Of a stretch of DNA of 25,378 bases, positions 1,589-25,139 are shown in pieces. The DNA is from Promethearchaeota archaeon (GTDB lineage: Archaea > Asgardarchaeota > Lokiarchaeia > Sigyniarchaeales > SOKP01). The stretch is taken from the NCBI GenBank assembly GCA_029838195.1, contig JALGVJ010000046.1, positions 1 to 25,378 on the forward strand. The letters run 5' to 3'. The notes beneath the pieces are model-generated. The model saw only the letters and a program-made list of their open reading frames with translations, was not told where the DNA came from and made no database searches. Position 1 is the first letter of the stretch. Each line of letters starts with the position of its first letter. The position numbers and the translations under genes were made by a program.

Positions 1589-3061
1589 TTAACATTTGGG
1601 ATTTTTTACTAAGGTTTTCGCCACGGGCGTGCATCCTAATAAATCTTTAAATTTACGCATGAAATCCATATCGATTGGTTCTTTTGCATCTTTCCATGCC
1701 ATTTCTAACAATTCTCGGGCTTTATCCGGAGCTTCCATGATCATGTCCTTCTCGAGATGAGGATCTTTTTTTACATCGAATAAGCTTCCTTCTTCTATAT
1801 CCCAAATATATCCATTATACCAATAATCTCCATCATATACTGCCACGGAGCCTCCCCAAGCAATTGTCACGTGGTCATGATAAATTAGATCCTTCTCTTG
1901 GACTAATGGTAGTAAATCTTGCCCATCCATGTCTTTTACACTAACGCCACATGCTTTCGCAATGGTAGCTGCGATATCATGGTGATAGCAAAACTTATCG
2001 CACGTTTTTCCGCTCCCTTCACCCCCTGGAAATCGAATCATTGCCACTAAATCCGCTACTTCTCTTCCCAGCGGATTTGCAGCTTTAGCAATGAGTCCAT
2101 GCTCTCCTAACATGTGTCCGTGGTCTGAAACAACGACAATTATAGAGTCATCCCAGATACCGATTCGCTTAATATAATCAATAAAATATCCAAACCACGT
2201 ATCAACAAGGGAAACTTCTCCCGCATATCTTGTTCTTAGATTTTTTAATTCTTTTTCGGTGATCATGGTTGCGGGGCCGTAGAGAGAATGGCATATTTTT
2301 CTGCAGCCTTTTTCCCAATCGGGATCTTTTTCATACATTCGAATATAGTGGAGAGGTGGGTTCCATGGCTCGTGTGGGTCAAAGGATTCCACGGTAATGA
2401 AGCCTTTGCCCGCAGAAAGGACTTCGTAATTCATATCTAACCATTCTCCTGCTGCTCGAAATACTTGTGCAGTAAAAGTATCCGCTTCAGAGCGCCACCA
2501 GCGCGTGTTTTGTAAGAACTTGCGCATCATGGTTTGGGCAAACACGGAACCGGCAGAAATTCCATCTTTTTTAGTGGTGAGATATTCCTTAAGAATTTCA
2601 TCGGGGATGCGGGGTCCGGATAAAAAAGAATCTTCTTCTTGTCCACGAATCCACATCCACTGGTCAAAACCCCGATGAAAATTATATCCGGGTTTGAATT
2701 GATGATACACATCTGAAAATAAAGCCGAGGTGTACTTTTTTCGCTTGAATCGCTCAGATAACGTATCATTTAATTCGGAAATATTGCCCCATCCAGGAGC
2801 GCCTAATGCATCGCCTATAAAATCGCCTCGTCCGGCTTTAGTAAGTCCTATTTTATCTTCAGTAAAAGGATAGACCCGTTTTCCCGTGTAGATTGCTTTT
2901 CGAGCGGGAAGGGTGGGGAGAGAATCAGGATACATTCGAGTAAATTTAACGGCTTCTTTAGCAAACTTGTCCAGATTAGGTGTTTTAATCCAATCATTTC
3001 CATAGCACCCCACGTGATCTTGTCGTAAAGTATCTAATATAATGAGAATTGCATTTACCAC
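1589..3061 (-). CDS. Sulfatase-like hydrolase/transferase (alkaline phosphatase superfamily)
   Basis: 490 aa, GTG start. Motifs NAILIILDTLRQDH, KTPNLD, PTLPARKAIYTG (sulfatase signature with Thr), FDPHEPW, VSDHG. Confidence 0.92.
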   Translation of the reverse strand: MVNAILIILDTLRQDHVGCYGNDWIKTPNLDKFAKEAVKFTRMYPDSLPTLPARKAIYTGKRVYPFTEDKIGLTKAGRGDFIGDALGAPGWGNISELNDTLSERFKRKKYTSALFSDVYHQFKPGYNFHRGFDQWMWIRGQEEDSFLSGPRIPDEILKEYLTTKKDGISAGSVFAQTMMRKFLQNTRWWRSEADTFTAQVFRAAGEWLDMNYEVLSAGKGFITVESFDPHEPWNPPLHYIRMYEKDPDWEKGCRKICHSLYGPATMITEKELKNLRTRYAGEVSLVDTWFGYFIDYIKRIGIWDDSIIVVVSDHGHMLGEHGLIAKAANPLGREVADLVAMIRFPGGEGSGKTCDKFCYHHDIAATIAKACGVSVKDMDGQDLLPLVQEKDLIYHDHVTIAWGGSVAVYDGDYWYNGYIWDIEEGSLFDVKKDPHLEKDMIMEAPDKARELLEMAWKDAKEPIDMDFMRKFKDLLGCTPVAKTLVKNPKC

Positions 3062-4083: not shown

Positions 4084-5460
4084 TTATTGGGTAGCTGCCG
4101 TCATGTTAACATCTTTAATTTTAATTGCTGGCAGAAATGTTGGTGTGGGAACTTCCCACCATTTTATTTGAATGATTTTTTTTCCGATGGCCTCAATCCT
4201 GTTGAGCATTCCATGGATGTTATCAGAGATTCTCAATTTTTCAACGGGTTTAAGGATCTTGCCCCTTTGGATTAAAAACATGCCATCACGAGGAATCGTG
4301 GAAAAAGACCCTTCTAGCATGTTCGTGAAACGCGTGTACCAATTAGAAGTCACATAGATCGTAGGCTTTCTACTCTCATGAATCATTTCTTCAAAATGAT
4401 AATCCCCCTCTTTAAAAACGATATTGGAAGGTGCTGGAGCCAAGAACTTCGAACCAATTCCTAGCGAATAGAATGTAGAATTACCGGTGGTTTTGGAACC
4501 AAATTGCTTGGCGGTTGATGTGTTATGTAAGATTCCCTTGAGAAAACCATTCTCAATTAAAGTAGTCTTACCGGAAGGTGTTCCTTCCACGTCAAATGGA
4601 TGACTATGTAACCCTTCCTTTAATAATGCATCGTCCCAAATAGTTAGACTTTCATGAGCAATTTTTTTCCCGATGTCTTCAATTTTAATGGGGCTCATTC
4701 CAATCATCATTAAGAGAGGTTGGGCAGCATTGGTGAGTTGACCGAAAACGTTTGCGGCCACCGTCGGGCTCATGATGAGATCATAAATTCCCGCTTTTCC
4801 TTGAGTACCTCCCTCTGCCATTCTTGCTATATCTTTAGCATGATTAGCGGCATTCGAGAGTTTTTTATCAATATTATCTAAATTTCTCCCGCAAGCTATT
4901 CCTTGACCGCTGCTGCGCTCATCGGCAAAGGCCCTGATTGTAAATTGGTAATAGGAACTTTCATGAGTCCCTTTCACGTCATGACTCGTCAATAAATTGG
5001 TAGAAAAGTATCCAAAATAAAATACACCAGCCAATTTTTTAATTCCACTGACTTTAGAAGCATTTAATGCAGAATTGATGTATTCCGCTGCTTTTTCCGG
5101 GAAATCAAAAATTCTTTTATCCAAGAAATCTTTCATGGATGAATAAGAATGCTGTTGAGTCTCCATTCCATTATATAAATTGCTTCTTGGTACTTTCGAA
5201 AGATATTTCACCGTTCTTGAAAGGGTTTTTTCAATTTTTTTCGGAGTAGGGGCTTCTACATCCACTTGGGTTGTTTTTTGTTCTTTTACTAAAAATAATT
5301 CTAATAGATTCTCATTCCATTCTTTAGAAATATCAATTGCAGAATTAGAAAAGCGAATCTGGTAATTAGTTCCTTCTTTTCTCAATGCGATGATCTCATC
5401 CATGCCCATTTTAAGTGCTAAATTAATGGTAAATTCCAATATATCTTCGTTATTATTCAT
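4084..5460 (-). CDS. pmbA: PmbA/TldE family protein (non-catalytic partner of TldD)
   Basis: Motifs IRFSNS, PFDVEGTP, LIENGFLK, NWYTRF, DGMFLI and no HExxH. Start moved from 5553 to ATG 5460 (MNNNED), 2 nt after the tldD stop. Confidence 0.9.
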   Translation of the reverse strand: MNNNEDILEFTINLALKMGMDEIIALRKEGTNYQIRFSNSAIDISKEWNENLLELFLVKEQKTTQVDVEAPTPKKIEKTLSRTVKYLSKVPRSNLYNGMETQQHSYSSMKDFLDKRIFDFPEKAAEYINSALNASKVSGIKKLAGVFYFGYFSTNLLTSHDVKGTHESSYYQFTIRAFADERSSGQGIACGRNLDNIDKKLSNAANHAKDIARMAEGGTQGKAGIYDLIMSPTVAANVFGQLTNAAQPLLMMIGMSPIKIEDIGKKIAHESLTIWDDALLKEGLHSHPFDVEGTPSGKTTLIENGFLKGILHNTSTAKQFGSKTTGNSTFYSLGIGSKFLAPAPSNIVFKEGDYHFEEMIHESRKPTIYVTSNWYTRFTNMLEGSFSTIPRDGMFLIQRGKILKPVEKLRISDNIHGMLNRIEAIGKKIIQIKWWEVPTPTFLPAIKIKDVNMTAATQ

Positions 5461-5462
5461 GA

Positions 5463-6911
5463 TTAAATTCCTCCTAATCGGATATTTCGCATTCTTACAT
5501 GAGGGCCTCCCAACCACACGGGAACCCCTTGCATGGGATCTCCCTTTCCGCAAATTCCTAAAGGGAATTCCCCATCACGAGATACAGCATCAATGCTTTT
5601 TAAAATTCCGGGAGTAGTTAATTCTAAAATGGGTCTTCGTACCAAGACATTGGTCAGCGTTCCATTTTCGATGAGATAAGCCTCTAACCCCACGTATTTG
5701 CTTTGGAATCTTCTATCATCTATATTCCATTCAGTAAAGCTTTTCAAATAAACCCCCTTTTTAATGTCTTCAAACAATTCTTCTTTAGTGAAATCTCCCG
5801 GTTCAAAGAACGTGTTTGCCATGCGACATAAAGGTTCACTCCTGTAGTTCATGGAACGAGCTGCTGCATTGGATTGTGTGTTGAATTTAAATGCATGTTC
5901 TCTATTCAAGAGAAATTCATTTAATTTACCATTTTTGATGAGATATCTAGGACGCGCTTTCACGCACTCATCATCATAAAGATAATAGCCGGAACTTCCG
6001 GGAAGCGTAGGATCATCGATAACGGAAACGCAATCATTTCCCATCTTGATTTCTCCTAATGTCCCGTCTTTGAGAAGATCTGCATAAAAAGATTCACCGG
6101 CCTGCGCACCTTCACGCCCTAATATCCTATCCGCCTCGCTAGGATGTCCTACATTCTCATGGGCAATAATGCCCGAAATTTCTCCACTAATGACGACATC
6201 TACTTTATCTAATTTCATTTCGATGGCATTTCGTGCAGCCTTAATAAGAACTGCATTATCCTCTACAATTTTTTTATCTATTTCGTTTTCGATGAGCCAT
6301 TCCCAACCACCCGCTGCTCCCAAAGTCAGCATTCTTTGTTCCGTGCCTCCTTTTCCTTTCGCAGTGTTAAAGGAATGAAAAGAGATGAGAGAATGTTCTG
6401 ATTCTACTTGGGAACCATCACTATTAGCGATATATTTCTGCTCAGAATATAAATGTAATAAACACGTGCGGGTGGGCAATTTGAGTCGAAACCTTTGATT
6501 TAGTTCTTTATCAAGCTCAATAATGAATTGTTGCTTTTCTTCCAAGGAAATATTTTTAAATTTTATTTTTACGGGGGTTTTCCATTTAGTATTGACCGTT
6601 TTTTCCTCAGATAATTTAATAGCATCCTTTCGTTTGCTTACTTTAGCATGTTTAATGGCCTCCTTTATTAATTTTTCCAGATTTGCTCTCTCTAACTTGG
6701 GTGTCGATACAAAACTCATGCCGCCATTAACTAGAACTCGAATGCCCAATCCTTCAAGAGAGGTCATGCCAGCACCCAATATTACACCATTTCTTGCTGC
6801 AAGGCTCTCATCCTCAGAGAAAATATATCGTGCCTCGCTATAGGTGGCTCCCAAGGATAGGGCATGGTCAACGGCAAAGTCTGCTAAATCTTTTCCATAT
6901 TCCAATTCCAT
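5463..6911 (-). CDS. tldD: TldD family metalloprotease
   Basis: 482 aa with HENVGHPSEAD (HExxGH), YDDEC, RMANTFF and C-terminal CGKG plus VPVWLGGPH motifs. Confidence 0.93.
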   Translation of the reverse strand: MELEYGKDLADFAVDHALSLGATYSEARYIFSEDESLAARNGVILGAGMTSLEGLGIRVLVNGGMSFVSTPKLERANLEKLIKEAIKHAKVSKRKDAIKLSEEKTVNTKWKTPVKIKFKNISLEEKQQFIIELDKELNQRFRLKLPTRTCLLHLYSEQKYIANSDGSQVESEHSLISFHSFNTAKGKGGTEQRMLTLGAAGGWEWLIENEIDKKIVEDNAVLIKAARNAIEMKLDKVDVVISGEISGIIAHENVGHPSEADRILGREGAQAGESFYADLLKDGTLGEIKMGNDCVSVIDDPTLPGSSGYYLYDDECVKARPRYLIKNGKLNEFLLNREHAFKFNTQSNAAARSMNYRSEPLCRMANTFFEPGDFTKEELFEDIKKGVYLKSFTEWNIDDRRFQSKYVGLEAYLIENGTLTNVLVRRPILELTTPGILKSIDAVSRDGEFPLGICGKGDPMQGVPVWLGGPHVRMRNIRLGGI

Positions 6912-6951: not shown

Positions 6952-7905
6952 TCATGTTAAAATAGGTTTACTAATTTTAAAATCAATTTTTTTCATTAAA
7001 GACCCATGTTTCTCACGGATTTGCTTTAAATGCGCTTGTAATTGGTTTATTTCAAGTTTTTGGACCTTTAAGGGATATTCTCTCCCAAGCATTTTATATT
7101 TCTGAACTCCAAATTCATGATAAGGGATCAATTCAAAAGATTTGACACCCAATTCGACTAATTGAGTAAGATATTTATCTAATTCGCTGGGGATGTTAAT
7201 GAAATTATAGCCAGGAATCACGGGAACTCTGACGATTAAATCACCCTCATGTTCCAAGCAATATTTTAAATTCTTCAAGATTAATTCATTAGATTTGCCC
7301 GTCAATTGTTCATGACGCTTATCATCCAAGCATTTCACGTCATAAAGGAAAAGATCCACAAGAGACATTATCTCTTTAAGTTTTTTAGTCTCTACGTATC
7401 CCGTGGTATCCAAACACGTGTGTAATCCAAACTCGTGGGCTCTCTTTAAAAATTCTTTTATAAAATTGAATTGAAGCAATGGTTCACCCCCCGATAACGT
7501 CACGCCCCCTCCAGATTGTTCAAAAAATACTTTGTCAGATAACACTTCCTTCATGATATCTTCGACACTCATGTATTGTCCACAGATTTCTAATGCTTTA
7601 GAATCACACGTCTTCACGCATTCTTCACATAAATTACATTTATTTCTATCAATTATAATGATTTCTTTTGAATATGTAATGGCATTTAACGAACAAGAAT
7701 TTACACACTTGTTACAATTTTTATCATGGATGCATTGAAATTCTCTAAAAAGAATTTCGGGAAAGGGTTTAATCCCTTCAGGATTGTGGCACCACTTGCA
7801 ATACAAGGGACATCCTTTAAAAAAAATAGTGGCTCGTATGCCGGGGCCATCATGTAAAACAAAATGCTGGATATTAAAAATTAACCCTTTTTCTTTTCCG
7901 GTCAT
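6952..7905 (-). CDS. Glycyl-radical enzyme activating enzyme (radical SAM, with 2x[4Fe-4S] ferredoxin-like insert)
   Basis: HDGPGIR, FFKGCPLYCKWCHNPE (Cx3Cx2C), insert Cx5Cx2Cx3C and Cx2Cx2Cx3C, GGVTLSGGEP, LIPYH. Start chosen at ATG 7905 (MTGKEK), 8 nt after the GRE stop. Confidence 0.95.
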   Translation of the reverse strand: MTGKEKGLIFNIQHFVLHDGPGIRATIFFKGCPLYCKWCHNPEGIKPFPEILFREFQCIHDKNCNKCVNSCSLNAITYSKEIIIIDRNKCNLCEECVKTCDSKALEICGQYMSVEDIMKEVLSDKVFFEQSGGGVTLSGGEPLLQFNFIKEFLKRAHEFGLHTCLDTTGYVETKKLKEIMSLVDLFLYDVKCLDDKRHEQLTGKSNELILKNLKYCLEHEGDLIVRVPVIPGYNFINIPSELDKYLTQLVELGVKSFELIPYHEFGVQKYKMLGREYPLKVQKLEINQLQAHLKQIREKHGSLMKKIDFKISKPILT

Positions 7906-7913
7906 GACCCAAA

Positions 7914-10247
7914 TTAAATTTTCCCATAACAATATCTATTGATGATATCATCCTGCACGGCTTTGGGAAGATCAATAAATCGAGCACTATACCCCGAAAC
8001 TCTTACCATAAGATCCTTGTAGTTTTGAGGATTTACTTGGGCATCTTTCAGAGTTTTTAAAGAAATAGCATTAAATTGAAGATGGGAGCCCTTTAATTTA
8101 ACGTAACTCTTGAGAAGGGATTCAAATATCTTTCCGTTTTCAATTTTTGTAATTTCCGGATTAATGTTTAAGGTACATGCCACGCCATTTGTTAGTTTGG
8201 AATGATCAAATTTAGTAATGCTTTTAATGGCAGACGTTAATCCTTTCTCGCCGGTATGCCCGGGGGCAATGTCTCTATTCAATGGTTCTCCTTTTTTCCT
8301 CCCAGACGGTAGAGCCCCGGTAAAAATGCCAAAACCGATATGGGTCGTCATGGCATGAATGCCAATGCGATAATCTCCTCCACGAGAGCATTTCAATCCT
8401 TTTACAGAATTCGCCAAGATGTTCATCAATTTTTGAGCATATTTATCCGCTCTATCATCATCTTCTCCGTATTTGGGGCATTTGTATTTTAAATATTGCT
8501 GTAAATCCTTGTGTCCTCGGAAATTCCTTTTTAATGCTTCTATTAATTCCATTAACGACACCCGTTTTTCTTTAAATACGGCCCATTCAATGGCGGCGAG
8601 AGAGTCAATGACATCAGAAAAACCGGTAACATGAATCCCCGAAAAATTATATTTAGCCACGCCTTCACTTACATCCATTCCCTTTTCAAAAGCCCCATCA
8701 ATGCATAAAGACATTAGGGGGGTAGGTTTTAGAACACGATGTCCTTGTTGATAGGCATTTGCGGCCATGACTGCCATTTCTACGATAATTCTTAAGGCTG
8801 CTTCATAGGCTTTAAGGATATCATCCATGGAAGCATAGTGGTTGGGGTCAAAATTTAATTTTACATGTTTACTAACGATAGTTGTATCGGTATTCAATGC
8901 AAGCTCAAGAGCTTTTGGCATGCTTAAAAAAATAGCTCCCGTATTGTCATAGGAAGTGCCCGAGGTTGAAAGCCCCACGCACCCCACTATTCCATAGTTT
9001 CTGGCTTCTTGGAGAGGAATTCCGCAATTCATCAAGCTCTTGAAGATCAAATCATCATTGTATAAACCGATTACATTTTTTTCTTTGGAAAGAATTTTTC
9101 CAATAGCGTTCAAGAGCTCGTGAGGTGAATTTTCGTGCAATCGCACAACCAAATTAGGCGAGGGCACGGCAGCTTCATCTATGGCTTGCAAAAAGAGGTA
9201 TGTTAAGGGATTCGTCGCGTCATTTCCCTCTTCATCCACGCCTCCGACTAATATGTTCTGCGTCGTTGCCATTCCGCCAAAATAACTAGTAGCAACAGAA
9301 TCATAAAGTGCAATGATTTCATTAGTTTTTAGAAGCAAGTTCTTGATTAAGCGTAAAGCAGAATCGGCATTTCCATCATAGTACGAATATAAATATTGAT
9401 CTATGCGACCAAACGAGATGCCATGCTCAAAATTTTCGATATGGAGCGCCATGTGGAGGAACCAAATGAGTTGAAGGGCTTCATGGAAGGTTTGAGGGGG
9501 CTTTTTCGAAAGGTTTTCACATGCTTGAGCGATTTGCAGTAATTCCGATTTGCGGGTAGAGTTCGTTTCTTCTTTAGCCATTGATGCTGCCTTTTCTGCG
9601 TAGCGTTTTGAATAATCACATAATGCTTGACAAACACATTTAACCGATTTGTAAAAAGCAATTTTTTTATCCGAATTAGGATCTTTTATTGCATTCCGTT
9701 CTGAAATTAGATTTATGATTTTTTCATTAGCAAGTTCAATATATTTTTTTAATCCTACTTTTAATAAGCGAGGATAATTAATTACCGCGTGAGCGATTCC
9801 TCCTAATTCCGTAGCGATAAAGGCACAGCCACTATATTGAATATCGAAGATTTTAGAAGGTACCAGTTCACTAGCATAGGTATCTATTCTAAAATTTTCG
9901 TAAAAGGGAACCAAGTCTTTTTTAATCACGTCAATATCATGTTCATTTACCAATATAGGATTAATTTTTCTACGTGGTAAGGTTTCTAATTCTTTTAATA
10001 TTCTGAAACCACTTCCCTCGAAGCGAGGTATAGCAACCGGCACCTGGAAGTCGAAGGTTCCCACGATCAATTCATCGGGGCGAATGACGACAGGTAAATT
10101 TTCTAAAGTTAATTTTAACCCTTCGGCTTGATTAATAATCATGGGTCTGCCTAAAGCATTAATCAATGCTTTTTTATAATTAATCGGAACAGTAAGAGAT
10201 AATATAGGGGTACCTCTAATCATATCATCTAGCGTTTTAACTATCAT
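7914..10247 (-). CDS. Glycyl radical enzyme (PFL2/PflD-like superfamily), substrate unknown
   Basis: 777 aa with IRPDELIVG, TFHEALQ, GRIDQY, GG.D..G.DATN, Cys-loop IVGCVG (Cys423) and Gly-radical motif LMVRVSGYSA (Gly752). Adjacent to an activase. Confidence 0.95.
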   Translation of the reverse strand: MIVKTLDDMIRGTPILSLTVPINYKKALINALGRPMIINQAEGLKLTLENLPVVIRPDELIVGTFDFQVPVAIPRFEGSGFRILKELETLPRRKINPILVNEHDIDVIKKDLVPFYENFRIDTYASELVPSKIFDIQYSGCAFIATELGGIAHAVINYPRLLKVGLKKYIELANEKIINLISERNAIKDPNSDKKIAFYKSVKCVCQALCDYSKRYAEKAASMAKEETNSTRKSELLQIAQACENLSKKPPQTFHEALQLIWFLHMALHIENFEHGISFGRIDQYLYSYYDGNADSALRLIKNLLLKTNEIIALYDSVATSYFGGMATTQNILVGGVDEEGNDATNPLTYLFLQAIDEAAVPSPNLVVRLHENSPHELLNAIGKILSKEKNVIGLYNDDLIFKSLMNCGIPLQEARNYGIVGCVGLSTSGTSYDNTGAIFLSMPKALELALNTDTTIVSKHVKLNFDPNHYASMDDILKAYEAALRIIVEMAVMAANAYQQGHRVLKPTPLMSLCIDGAFEKGMDVSEGVAKYNFSGIHVTGFSDVIDSLAAIEWAVFKEKRVSLMELIEALKRNFRGHKDLQQYLKYKCPKYGEDDDRADKYAQKLMNILANSVKGLKCSRGGDYRIGIHAMTTHIGFGIFTGALPSGRKKGEPLNRDIAPGHTGEKGLTSAIKSITKFDHSKLTNGVACTLNINPEITKIENGKIFESLLKSYVKLKGSHLQFNAISLKTLKDAQVNPQNYKDLMVRVSGYSARFIDLPKAVQDDIINRYCYGKI

Positions 10248-10355
10248 GATTATATTCTTACAATCTTTTCATGAAAATTATAGGTAATATTATTTGGGAA
10301 AAAAGATAAATCCTTTTCTTATGAGATTAAATGTCGTGGTTTTAAATCCTCATGA

Positions 10356-10763
10356 TCATGGGAGGCAGATACCCGGGGCCATCAGGGCTCTTAAAAATTT
10401 GTCCCATATTTTGAAATAAGGTGGGATTTTATTTACTAAATGCAAGAGTTCGTTTATTTTTGATTTGAGAGTGATTTCTGAAATACCATGTACACCGATA
10501 TATTGATTTGGTAAGCGATAAATTAAGAAATTTTGGATTTCAGAAATTGGATTGACTTTTATAAAATCAGCATGAGTATACACATCAGCGCCTGCGCTAC
10601 ATTTAAAAGAGTATCTAATATTATAATGTCTAATAAATACTTGCCACACTTAAAAAACATCCTTCATTAATCCGAGAAATGCATTATTATTAGCAAGGTC
10701 ATCCGCGAATTTTTGACAAGATAAATATAATTTCAGAGCATGAGGCATGAAAATTCTTCTCAT
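10356..10763 (-). pseudogene. Possible pseudogene: 136-codon frame interrupted by one in-frame TAA (10650-10652)
   Basis: ATG at 10763 reads MRRIFMPHALKLYLSCQKFADDLANNNAFLGLMKDVF*, then continues in frame into the 97-aa ORF VWQVFIRHYN...GICLP*. No family recognised. Confidence 0.4.
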
Positions 10764-11000
10764 TTTAACTTTTTAGTACGTAAATTTAGATTTAATAAAA
10801 TAAGATAAAAATTCCATGTAATAACTTAAATTATTACCTCAAAAATTATAATTTTATTTTTCTTTTATTATCAATGAATGCAATCCAATTTAATAAAAAG
10901 TTTCTTTATTAACTTTGGAAGAAAATAATAGATATTAAATAATCCTTTTATTATAAAAATTAGAGAAGAAAAAAAAAAGACGAGGAAAGGAAAATAAATA

Positions 11001-21863: not shown

Positions 21864-22871
21864 ATGAAAACAGCTTTATATGAAGGAAAAAGAAAAATTA
21901 AAATTGTTGAAAAACCAGATCCAATACCCGAAAAGAATGAAGTAGTAATAAAAGTTAAACATACCGGCATTTGTGGATCGGATCTGGAATTTTACAAGAC
22001 AGGATTATGGCCCGAAAAAGGCATTTTAGGACATGAAATAATGGGAATCATTAAAGAATTAGGATCTGAGGTCAAGAAATGGAAAAGTGGAGATCGTGTT
22101 ACAATTGATCCTGCCTTACCTTGTGGCCGATGTTATTATTGTAAAAAAGGAGGGACAAATCTATGTTCAGGTACGGAAGCCATTGGATTGGGGAGAGATG
22201 GAGGCTTTGCTGAATATATTAAAGTTCCCGAAAGATGCATTATAAAACTACCCGATGCTATACCCGACAAGCATGGTACGGTTTTTGACCAAATTGGAAC
22301 AGGATTAATGGCATTGAAAAAAATAAATTTTAAGATTGGAGATACCGCAGTCGTCTTGGGAATGGGTACAATAGGTCTTTTCTTATTACAACTATTAAAA
22401 ATCTCTGGAGCGTCACGAATAGTGGTTATTGAGAAAAATATTAACCGTTTAGAGGTTGCAAAGAGATTTAATCCCGATTTAGCCTTAACCAAGGTAAATC
22501 ATCCTAAGATAAAAAGAATCGTCGGAAGGATTGGAGCAACTCATGTTTTTGAATGCTCTGGCTCACCTCAATTGGTCAATGCCGCTTTAGATATTACTTG
22601 CAAGGATGGAAATGTTATCCAGATAGGATTATGGGATAAACCCATTGAAATCAGTATAACAAAATATGTTATGAATCAAATCCGAATACAAGGAATAATT
22701 GGTTGCTCACGAGAAGATTTTGAATTTGCCATTGAATTAGTTGCTAAAAAAATGATCGATCCTGAACCGATTATCACGAAAATCATCCCTTTAGATAGAA
22801 TCGTGGAAGAGGGATTTGAAAGTGCGATTTCTCCTAACACGAGCGACATAAAAATATTAGTAGCGCCTTGA
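21864..22871 (+). CDS. Zinc-dependent MDR alcohol/polyol dehydrogenase
   Basis: GICGSD, GHE, structural Zn CGRCYYC..NLC, Rossmann GMGTIG and ECSG motifs. Confidence 0.93.
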   Translation: MKTALYEGKRKIKIVEKPDPIPEKNEVVIKVKHTGICGSDLEFYKTGLWPEKGILGHEIMGIIKELGSEVKKWKSGDRVTIDPALPCGRCYYCKKGGTNLCSGTEAIGLGRDGGFAEYIKVPERCIIKLPDAIPDKHGTVFDQIGTGLMALKKINFKIGDTAVVLGMGTIGLFLLQLLKISGASRIVVIEKNINRLEVAKRFNPDLALTKVNHPKIKRIVGRIGATHVFECSGSPQLVNAALDITCKDGNVIQIGLWDKPIEISITKYVMNQIRIQGIIGCSREDFEFAIELVAKKMIDPEPIITKIIPLDRIVEEGFESAISPNTSDIKILVAP

Positions 22872-22879
22872 AAAGAATA

Positions 22880-24406
22880 TTAAGTGCGTAGTTTTTCGAT
22901 ATCACGGCTATTTAGCGTGATGATGTTTTTTTGAAGAGAAGGATCATGTTTCACGGGGAATTTCTTACCTATCAAATCATGTTTTAATAACCCATTCAAT
23001 ACAATACGATCCGCGCTAATTTGAGCGAGAGCTCTTCGATTTGATTCAATTTTTCCAATAACTATTCCCTTAACAGGATTTCCTTGTCTATCATGTACAA
23101 ATGTATAACTCTCTATTTCTAAAACACCATTTGCTTCTTTTAATGGAGGAGCCAAACTTTTGGATAAAATGGCGCTTTGGATTTCGGTATCGTCAAGCTG
23201 ATCCCATAAAATTAAAGGAGGGTTTTTTCCATAAATTCCAAAAGATTGTTTGGTATTGTATCCTCCATTCGCAATTACCATGATTTTTAAATCAGAATTG
23301 TCACGGATTTTTTCTACAGCCGTTACAATTGCGTGCATGGAATAATTGCTCCAAGGTCCACCAAAATAAGGCAAACCCCCTGCGATAGTGAGAGTACGGG
23401 GGTCGTCCTCTAGGATTCCGATTTCTTTTTTAATAATTTGCACGATGGAAGGAAAGCAACTATAGATATCAAAAGCATTAATTTCATTTAACCTCAAGCC
23501 AGCTTGCTTTAAAGCGCGTTTTGATCCTTCTCGAGCGGCCGGTGAATCGTATAATTTTGGGCGCCTAGATATTTCATGAATGTTTTGGAAGTCGGACCCT
23601 CCCATTAAGTATACCCATAAATGCTCATCGATATTTAATCGGCGAGCGACCTCCTCTGTCATCATGATAATCGCTGCTACTTGATCCACAAACATGTTAG
23701 AACACATGCGTTTAGTATAAGGAAAATTTATCATTCGATTTTCATCCGTCGGAGTAATAATTTCTTCTGCGCTAAATGATGTTCTTGTCCACGCATGAGG
23801 ATTCTCGGAAGCTATTTTCGAAAATCTTTCAAATAATTTCCCCATGTGAAGTTGATGTTCTCGAATTGTTCTTTGCGAAGCACTTCTTAAGGCATTTTCA
23901 AATATGGCATACGTGCAAGAGGGAATTTTGAACCCATATAAATTTTCATGATCATTAATTCCATTCCAAATTTTGCCTTCCATGCTTGCAGGTTTTTCAC
24001 GAGGCGGCCAGTCTTGCGTTTTTTTTGATTTATAGGCAGTATATGCAGCTTCTCCTCCCGCTATTAAAACCGCCTTAGCTTGACCATAAAAGAGAGCCTT
24101 GGAAGCTCTATTTACCGCCATTTGAGGAGTATTGCCCCCATCAGCCAAATATATTTTCTGTTTAGGTTTGATTCCAAGAGCCTTGCATAAAACTCCCGGC
24201 GAATCCTTATAAGACCAACTATTAACATTAATGAGGATTACTGAATCAATGGATTTAATGAGTTTAAAATCTTCTACACCGGTATCTTTTATTGCATTTT
24301 TACTGGCGTGGAGGATTAATTGTAAAGGATCTAAGGGATTTTTTGTTTGCTTATGCTGAGTATATTGAGAAACACCAACAATAATGGAATTCTTTCCTTC
24401 CTTCAT
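22880..24406 (-). CDS. Thiolase-like protein (acetyl-CoA acetyltransferase-like, TLP1 type) with C-terminal extra domain
   Basis: GGNTPQ, GGEA, NRMINFPYTK, VDQ.AA, DIYSCFP, GGLPYFGGP..NY.MHAI and ANGG motifs. Start chosen at ATG 24406. Confidence 0.85.
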   Translation of the reverse strand: MKEGKNSIIVGVSQYTQHKQTKNPLDPLQLILHASKNAIKDTGVEDFKLIKSIDSVILINVNSWSYKDSPGVLCKALGIKPKQKIYLADGGNTPQMAVNRASKALFYGQAKAVLIAGGEAAYTAYKSKKTQDWPPREKPASMEGKIWNGINDHENLYGFKIPSCTYAIFENALRSASQRTIREHQLHMGKLFERFSKIASENPHAWTRTSFSAEEIITPTDENRMINFPYTKRMCSNMFVDQVAAIIMMTEEVARRLNIDEHLWVYLMGGSDFQNIHEISRRPKLYDSPAAREGSKRALKQAGLRLNEINAFDIYSCFPSIVQIIKKEIGILEDDPRTLTIAGGLPYFGGPWSNYSMHAIVTAVEKIRDNSDLKIMVIANGGYNTKQSFGIYGKNPPLILWDQLDDTEIQSAILSKSLAPPLKEANGVLEIESYTFVHDRQGNPVKGIVIGKIESNRRALAQISADRIVLNGLLKHDLIGKKFPVKHDPSLQKNIITLNSRDIEKLRT

Positions 24407-24560
24407 GAGATTAATCAAATTAAATTAAAAAGATATAAAAAGATTTTTTTTTTTTTATAAAAGATTTTCTCATTCTTCAATATAATTTAAAGTTTAATAA
24501 TTTAAAACAATGAACCCCAAAAAAACATGAATTAAAACATTTAAATTAAAATATTTAAAA

Positions 24561-24862: not shown

Positions 24863-25139
24863 TTAATTTTTCAACAATTACTTCTGCTGCGAGGGCTCGC
24901 ACATCTTTTTTCATGGGGGGCAAGGGAACCGAGATATCATCAAAACAAATGGAAATTTTACTATCGCTCATGATTAATTCATCTAATTTTTTTGATTCTA
25001 TAGGATTTTCAATGGCGTCTTTTATCGCATTTCTTGCATTTTCAAGGGGACGCATGGGTTCCTTCGCATGATAAATATCGATGTTATCAGAAAAATCATG
25101 GAGAAACACGTCATCCCCAAAATAAATTATCTCCTTCAT
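24863..25139 (-). pseudogene. Truncated LarA-like (lactate racemase N-terminal/DUF2088) gene
   Basis: AIENPIESKKL...ICFDDISVPLPPM..D.R is a LarA_N-type N-terminus. Similarity stops after VIVEKL (~92 aa), and the expected ALGLHR-like motif and rest of the protein are missing. The frame runs into antisense IS sequence and stops at 24807. Confidence 0.7.

Follow-up and report, generated by a model that had tools for sequence, protein, structure and literature searches.

A glycyl radical enzyme clade of mainly Asgard archaea with glycine in place of the Cys-loop glutamate, possibly acting on an anionic hydroxy acid

We analyzed a stretch of 25,378 nucleotides from a Promethearchaeota archaeon (contig JALGVJ010000046.1 of assembly GCA_029838195.1, positions 1 to 25,378), hereafter called the window, and found that it encodes a glycyl radical enzyme (GRE) with a Gly-Cys-Val-Gly (GCVG) Cys loop next to a GRE-activating enzyme. 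In this unit, fold, Gly loop, catalytic Cys, and activase are all intact. We are highly confident that the protein represents a real, selected, and distinct GRE clade, as yet uncharacterized. The fuller reading, in which a functional GRE and activase unit of this mainly Asgard clade descends from the dehydratase-like lineage of Archaeoglobus fulgidus PFL2 and acts on an anionic hydroxy-acid substrate, stands in our estimate at about even chances. No paper describing the GCVG clade was found in the literature searched.

The GRE gene is an open reading frame (ORF) on the minus strand that codes for 777 residues without internal stop. Its product has the composition of the pyruvate formate lyase (PFL)-like GRE superfamily (IPR004184), with a PFL-like barrel (PF02901, E = 1e-156) and a C-terminal glycine radical domain (PF01228, E = 2.4e-22). 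Its AlphaFold2 (AF2) model has a predicted local distance difference test (pLDDT) score of 93 and a predicted template-modeling (pTM) score of 0.93, and superimposes onto A. fulgidus PFL2 (PDB 2f3o) with a template-modeling (TM) score of 0.94. Cys423, situated in VGCVGLSTSG within YGIVGCVGLSTSG, is the single Cys of the G-C-V-G motif, and Gly425, at position Cys+2, occupies the site of the Glu residue of eliminases and isomerases. The superfamily fingerprint RVxG[FWY]x6-8[FL]x4Qx2[IV]x2R, defined in a 2026 review (PMC13450708), is present as RVSGY-SARFID-L-PKAV-Q-DD-I-IN-R, in addition to Cys423. A preliminary description of the window, made from the sequence alone, had placed the Cys423 motif at 8973-8984 and Gly752 in an intact RVSGY; both are read in the translation, on the minus strand, which that description left unstated. 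It had also reported a full-length, long-type activase next door, in agreement with the score of 334 bits that this ORF obtains with TIGR02494 (cut-off 174) and with its CPLYCKWC (CX3CX2C) motif and two ferredoxin-like Cys clusters. The activase ORF as listed lies directly downstream of the GRE gene and overlaps its stop codon, the true start being likely the ATG at 7903-7905, just past the GRE stop. The radical relay hardware, consisting of Gly752, Cys423, and the activase, is both intact and under selection.

A glycine at Cys+2 could in principle be an artefact or the mark of a dead gene, that is, a sequencing error in the GGG codon, a recent inactivation, or a catalytically silent paralogue. 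The preliminary description had raised the error and recent-mutation variants, pointing out that GGG is one substitution away from the Glu codon GAG and that the nearest orthologues might carry GCVE; in addition, GCVE or GCLE loops are found in the three other GREs of the genome. A search over 5.8 billion proteins, with hits taken as cluster representatives, yielded more than 100 representatives at 52-73% identity, and the full-length ones all have GC(V/I)G with LSTSG after it; the nearest orthologues are all GCVG. In the alignment, the position of G425 is Gly in 103/103 clade members, down to 52% identity, versus Glu in 86-88% of about 150 other GRE representatives. Over 50 distinct DNAs, the Gly425 codon is GGA in 36, GGG in nine, GGC in three, and GGT in two, so that all four Gly codons are in use, two of which lie two steps from any Glu codon. 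Codon diversity and the clade-wide Gly together show long-term purifying selection rather than a sequencing error or a recent mutation. Purifying selection maintains both the Gly that replaces the Cys-loop Glu and the one that replaces a β-strand Asp (D447 of glycerol dehydratase, GD) throughout the clade. The open frame over 777 residues, the intact activase, and the strong conservation surrounding both loops equally speak against a dead gene. The sequence evidence thus effectively refutes the error and recent-mutation variants, and an artefact or dead gene of any kind is, in our judgment, extremely improbable.

In a maximum-likelihood tree of 174 sequences (FastTree, LG+gamma), the GCVG clade is monophyletic with a support of 1.0 and has a small GCVS group as its sister (support 1.0). 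The two together branch with the GCVE-bearing A. fulgidus PFL2 lineage (support 0.999), a placement that indicates a single loss of the Glu within this dehydratase-like archaeal lineage. Gly at Cys+2 recurs in a second, unrelated GRE clade (P0120, P0122, and P0138; about 33% identity), in the loop VGCVGAQVSGCGKG, with another Cys eight residues on; therefore, the Glu was lost more than once in the GRE superfamily. The hosts of the GCVG clade are mostly Asgard metagenome-assembled genomes (MAGs) labeled Promethearchaeia/-ota, Hod-, Hermod-, Thor-, and Heimdallarchaeota, joined by Candidatus Geothermarchaeum rappei (54% identity) and the Archaeoglobus sp. JdFR-41 MAG (53%). Among 301 sampled genomes of the phylum, orthologues of the clade occur in 15 of the 68 genomes of the family to which the window belongs, and the other families gave only PFL2-like matches of 39-42% identity. 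Several deviations from usually conserved positions had been pointed out in the preliminary description. PL(N/T)(R/K)D-IAP (here PLNRDIAP), IGLYND, and the shorter segment after GRIDQY proved to be features of the whole clade, whereas KYGEDD is private to this protein, the clade consensus being KYGNDD.

The source genome (4.5 Mb) encodes four PFL-like GREs, including the GCVG one. The three others, on contigs C38, C90, and C92, are 796, 988, and 828 residues long and carry GCVE or GCLE loops; one of them has an N-terminal extension of about 190 residues. The Cys-Cys pair of PFL is present in none of the four, and the genome is therefore without a canonical pyruvate formate lyase.

Comparison with the characterized GRE classes places the protein in none of them, as the preliminary description had proposed in stating that it fits neither the CXE, nor the Cys-Cys, nor the fumarate-adding enzymes. 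The view of a divergent GRE class likewise stood when clustering inside a characterized family, which would have spoken against it, was looked for: the clade is separate in the tree, and the protein scores below the cut-off of every NCBIfam model. It obtains 395-434 bits with the equivalog models of characterized eliminases (HypD, CutC, HpfG, HpsG, and PflD type; cut-offs 1000-1109), 659 bits with the broad subfamily model TIGR01774 (cut-off 678), and, for the decarboxylases HPAD, IAD, and PAD, 250 bits with NF033715 (cut-off 1150) and 271 bits with NF033718 (cut-off 1100). HPAD shares 21% identity with the protein, at a TM score of 0.88 to the AF2 model.

The databases name members of the clade 'pyruvate formate lyase family' or 'formate C-acetyltransferase', and the Gly loop RVSGY..R resembles that of PFL. 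A pyruvate or 2-oxoacid formate-lyase activity would agree with Asgard metabolic reconstructions, 2-oxoacid formate lyases having been invoked in an Asgard archaeon by Imachi et al. 2020 (PMC7015854). The two-Cys motif is, on the other hand, confined to PFL and TdcE, in which both Cys residues are essential (PMC13450708), while the present loop contains a single Cys. The protein obtains just 118 bits with TIGR01255 (cut-off 994), and it matches PFL with an E value of only 1e-20. The sequence thus rules out the PFL mechanism for the GCVG clade, and we consider a formate-lyase function very improbable.

A further reading, an alkyl- or benzyl-succinate synthase adding its substrate to fumarate, follows earlier proposals on A. 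fulgidus PflD and Hermodarchaeota GREs (PMC8163825; review PMC13450708). The X-succinate synthases indeed share with the clade a single Cys and a Cys loop devoid of Glu. In BSS and MASS, the Arg that binds fumarate is located at Cys+15 (R508 and R492, respectively; PMC12358834); by offset count rather than direct alignment to BSS, this position is occupied here by Ala438, and 99% of the clade has Ala there. Genes for small Fe-S subunits were not seen beside the GRE among ORFs of at least 90 residues in the window and 45 related loci, smaller ORFs not having been searched systematically. The residues changed in the pocket are polar (His, Thr, Asp, and Arg) and not hydrophobic, and these enzymes are far more distant: MASS and BSS match with E values of 3e-63 and 1e-48, versus 1e-172 for the dehydratase-like relative, and both superimpose with a TM score of 0.88. 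Taken together, these sequence features argue against fumarate addition, which appears quite unlikely, if a little less so than a formate lyase. The published readings as alkylsuccinate synthase (PMC8163825) and 2-oxoacid formate lyase (PMC7015854) are thus unsupported for this clade. Fumarate addition, formate lyase, and a dead gene share, even combined, a small probability.

The closest solved relative is A. fulgidus PFL2 (PflD, PDB 2f3o), with an E value of 1e-172 and a Foldseek structural alignment at 38% identity; by BLASTP, other members of the PFL2 group are 39-45% identical to the GRE. The two proteins have the same length, domain order, and activase type, and the function of PFL2 is itself debated, either as glycerol dehydratase or as alkylsuccinate synthase. 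Where PFL2 has GCVE and Asp440, the GCVG clade has Gly at both positions; in addition, Gln gives way to His at 275, Tyr to His at 631, Asn to Thr at 329, and Tyr to Phe at 273, and the clade is set apart by Arg627, Asp659, Cys691, and Arg756. The best superpositions of the AF2 model are with PFL2, glycerol and propanediol dehydratases, and CutC (TM 0.92-0.94), followed at 0.88 by BSS, MASS, and HPAD. Considered as a group, GD from C. butyricum (PDB 1r8w) and the other eliminases and isomerases (PD, CutC, HypD, IslA, YbiW, and PflD) have the fold in common with the protein, with TM scores of 0.91-0.94, as well as the single catalytic Cys.

Pairwise alignment to GD 1r8w was used to map the active site. 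H164 and H281 of GD are kept as H153 and H275, whereas S282, Y339, E435, D447, and Y640 are changed to G276, T329, G425, G437, and H631, respectively; all seven positions are at least 96% conserved within the clade. Thr502 of CutC aligns with the invariant T436. Residues that do not vary within the clade and seldom or never occur outside it, in a set of representatives with no identifiable IslA-like or HypD-like members, include R75, T428, D434, R627, D659, C691, T692, and R756. With bulk or charge lost at five ligand positions, the alignment suggests that the pocket is larger. The suggestion, made in the preliminary description, of a bulkier substrate or a non-eliminase reaction is therefore maintained in its first part, the loss of side-chain bulk being consistent with a larger or different substrate, while its second part stands as a proposal.

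Indeed, the two retained active-site His residues and the gain of a third make an eliminase with a relocated base possible. Such an enzyme would be a 1,2-eliminase or isomerase, acting as a dehydratase or lyase on diols, polyols, or amino alcohols, in which the base has moved to H631 or H275 and H153 protonates the leaving group. The closest structures named above, the invariance of the GD His164 and His281 equivalents, the new invariant His in place of GD Tyr640, and the alignment of CutC Thr502 with T436 are in line with this mechanism; a PocR-domain sensor kinase is encoded past the activase in one relative, and the zinc-dependent alcohol dehydrogenase (Zn-ADH) and aldehyde:ferredoxin oxidoreductase (AOR) genes found near some GREs of the clade would suit an aldehyde product. 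Against it, the CXE motif is preserved in each of the six C-O eliminases, in CutC, in the C-S lyases, and in the three isomerases, with a Glu that is essential where tested (PMC13450708); here, five ligand positions are changed together and not the base alone, and every eliminase equivalog cut-off is missed. We regard a relocated-base eliminase as rather unlikely.

The hydroxy-acid reading draws on the gene context, which was compared over 46 loci including the window. Genes for BKACE, a β-keto-acid cleavage enzyme, and for 3-hydroxyacyl-CoA-dehydrogenase (3HCDH)-like proteins are located within a short distance of the GRE, at most a few genes away, in three arrangements unrelated to one another: in an Asgard metagenome group, in a Hodarchaeota MAG, and in Archaeoglobus sp. 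JdFR-41. The locus of the last is the most operon-like metabolic context found: a LarA-like homologue of 2-hydroxyacid racemase overlaps the GRE start by 4 nt (L056:4526-5935; also L094), with an AOR gene upstream, and the genes on the downstream side code for the activase, a 3HCDH-like protein, BKACE, an amino-acid permease, and a DAGK-like kinase. In a Promethearchaeota MAG, a second LarA-like gene is close to the GRE; in the Hodarchaeota MAG, a Zn-ADH gene follows the GRE; and MFS transporters are frequent nearby. The recurrence of BKACE/3HCDH, LarA-like, AOR, Zn-ADH, and MFS neighbors suggests, with low confidence, a hydroxy-carboxylic acid as the substrate accommodated by the Glu-less Cys loop. 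Nothing relevant linking GREs to BKACE or LarA was found in the literature.

In the mechanism that we propose tentatively for such a substrate, the cycle would proceed as usual from the Gly radical to the Cys thiyl radical and to hydrogen abstraction from the substrate. The latter would be larger and probably anionic, a hydroxy-carboxylic acid being the best guess. The Cys loop (GCVGLSTSG), lacking the Glu and rich in Ser/Thr, would take up its carboxylate and act as an oxyanion hole beside the thiyl radical. In BSS and MASS, which lack the Glu, the fumarate carboxylate is held by a Cys-loop oxyanion hole (PMC12358834); this would be a mechanistic resemblance and not class membership. The acid/base role might be taken by His153, His275, or His631, or by the carboxylate of the substrate itself, and the product would be a carbonyl compound or a β-oxo or hydroxy acid, handed to dehydrogenases and BKACE-type enzymes. 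Two candidate reactions would fit the neighbors: a 2,3-dihydroxy acid might be dehydrated to a β-keto acid, or a 2-hydroxy acid might be decarboxylated, giving an alcohol or a β-hydroxy acid. It is possible, though doubtful, that the clade carries out an undescribed type of GRE reaction, in which, for example, 2-hydroxy or 2,3-dihydroxy carboxylic acids would undergo radical dehydration or Kolbe-type decarboxylation, with the substrate carboxylate in the place of the Glu and the His triad 153/275/631 serving in acid/base catalysis or even metal binding. We consider the claim of new chemistry a well-founded hypothesis.

Several points weigh against the hydroxy-acid reading. The commonest context is a housekeeping one and is uninformative on the substrate: in about 22 loci, the dominant Asgard order is Elp3, zero to two copies of a hypothetical gene, GRE, an optional activase, GatE, GatD, and L2. 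The genome under study has four copies of BKACE and five matches to LarA homologues, so that chance adjacency to a GRE is not negligible. BKACE and LarA are not among the neighbors of the GRE in the window, where only TldD/PmbA genes, a distant Zn-ADH gene, and a LarA-like fragment 15 kb away were found. R756 may be structural, since RVSGY..R also resembles the Gly loop of PFL. Finally, the reaction and the substrate are both proposals drawn from sequence and analogy.

The annotated function of the GCVG clade, pyruvate formate lyase or formate C-acetyltransferase, is probably wrong. The clade is widespread in Asgard archaea, and its PFL-type annotations feed models of Asgard fermentation that invoke 2-oxoacid formate lyase and alkylsuccinate synthase. 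According to the 2026 review, no archaeal PFL-like GRE has an assigned function (PMC13450708). If true, the hydroxy-acid reading would provide the first one and revise the interpretation of 'PFL' genes in Asgard metabolic models. The GRE and activase pair is compact and clonable, so that the clade offers a direct means of testing for a possibly new radical reaction and of correcting Asgard metabolic reconstructions.

The features of the window and a hypothetical family found in related loci are listed in Table 1. In genomes in which the GRE of the clade lacks an adjacent activase, one to three GRE activases are encoded elsewhere.

Table 1. Positions of the GRE, its loops, the neighboring features of the window, and family F8 in related loci.
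Feature	Position	Strand	Basis or remark
GRE (P0001), archaeal GCVG clade member	7914..10247	-	ORF, PF02901 + PF01228, closest solved structure 2f3o, AF2 model
Cys loop Y418-G430, YGIVGCVGLSTSG	8958..8996	-	Cys423 codon 8979-8981; Gly425 codon GGG 8973-8975
Gly loop RVSGY, radical site Gly752 (7992-7994)	7989..8003	-	Translation and fingerprint match
GRE-activating radical SAM enzyme (P0002)	6952..7932	-	TIGR02494, CX3CX2C, two ferredoxin-like clusters
AT-rich intergenic region, GRE to divergently transcribed family B DNA polymerase	10248..11000	.	Window ORF/Pfam survey
TldD/PmbA-type peptidase pair	4084..6911	-	Pfam; directly downstream of activase, same strand
F8 copies	L049:4801-5877, L049:3290-4414		Equivalents in L034, L035, L039, L046, L048, L051, L065, L070, L075, L083, L084, L087

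The TldD/PmbA metallopeptidase genes code for 482 and 489 residues as listed, and their ORFs overlap by about 90 nt (5463-5553). They were rejected as part of the GRE system, their adjacency to the GRE being seen in this window only and in 0/45 other loci. A 97-residue ORF at 10356-10649 was likewise rejected as an accessory small subunit: it has no family match and no Fe-S-type Cys motif, its only two Cys residues being far apart.

F8, a hypothetical family of about 360 residues, is encoded between elp3 and the GRE gene in many Asgard loci, immediately upstream of the latter and often as two tandem copies. No Pfam match was obtained for it, and its atlas neighbors are only hypothetical archaeal proteins (AF_0136_C-like cluster). 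Its AF2 model (pLDDT 79) has no clear fold match, the best having a Z score of 6.3, and the N terminus is weakly ribbon-helix-helix-like (Z about 4-4.7). F8 may be a local regulator, which would be silent on the substrate.

On the metagenome contig whose context is closest to that of the window, with PolB and a 378-residue hypothetical protein in common, a PocR-PAS histidine kinase gene follows the GRE-activase pair (L069:6972-9479). A sulfatase-family gene (1589-3061, minus strand) is located a few genes from the GRE in the window, and a member of the same BLAST family occurs near the GRE in a Promethearchaeota MAG (L033), with GPH-type and MFS transporters close by. The segment 19591-24418 encodes a DUF2804 protein, a Zn-dependent alcohol dehydrogenase (21864-22871) of the same family as the one directly after the GRE in the Hodarchaeota MAG (L041), and a thiolase-like protein (22880-24418). 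Near the contig end, a frame of 110-114 residues contains a short Lar_N match (24882-25082, minus strand, E = 2e-7), which may represent either a fragment or a LarA homologue that is truncated.

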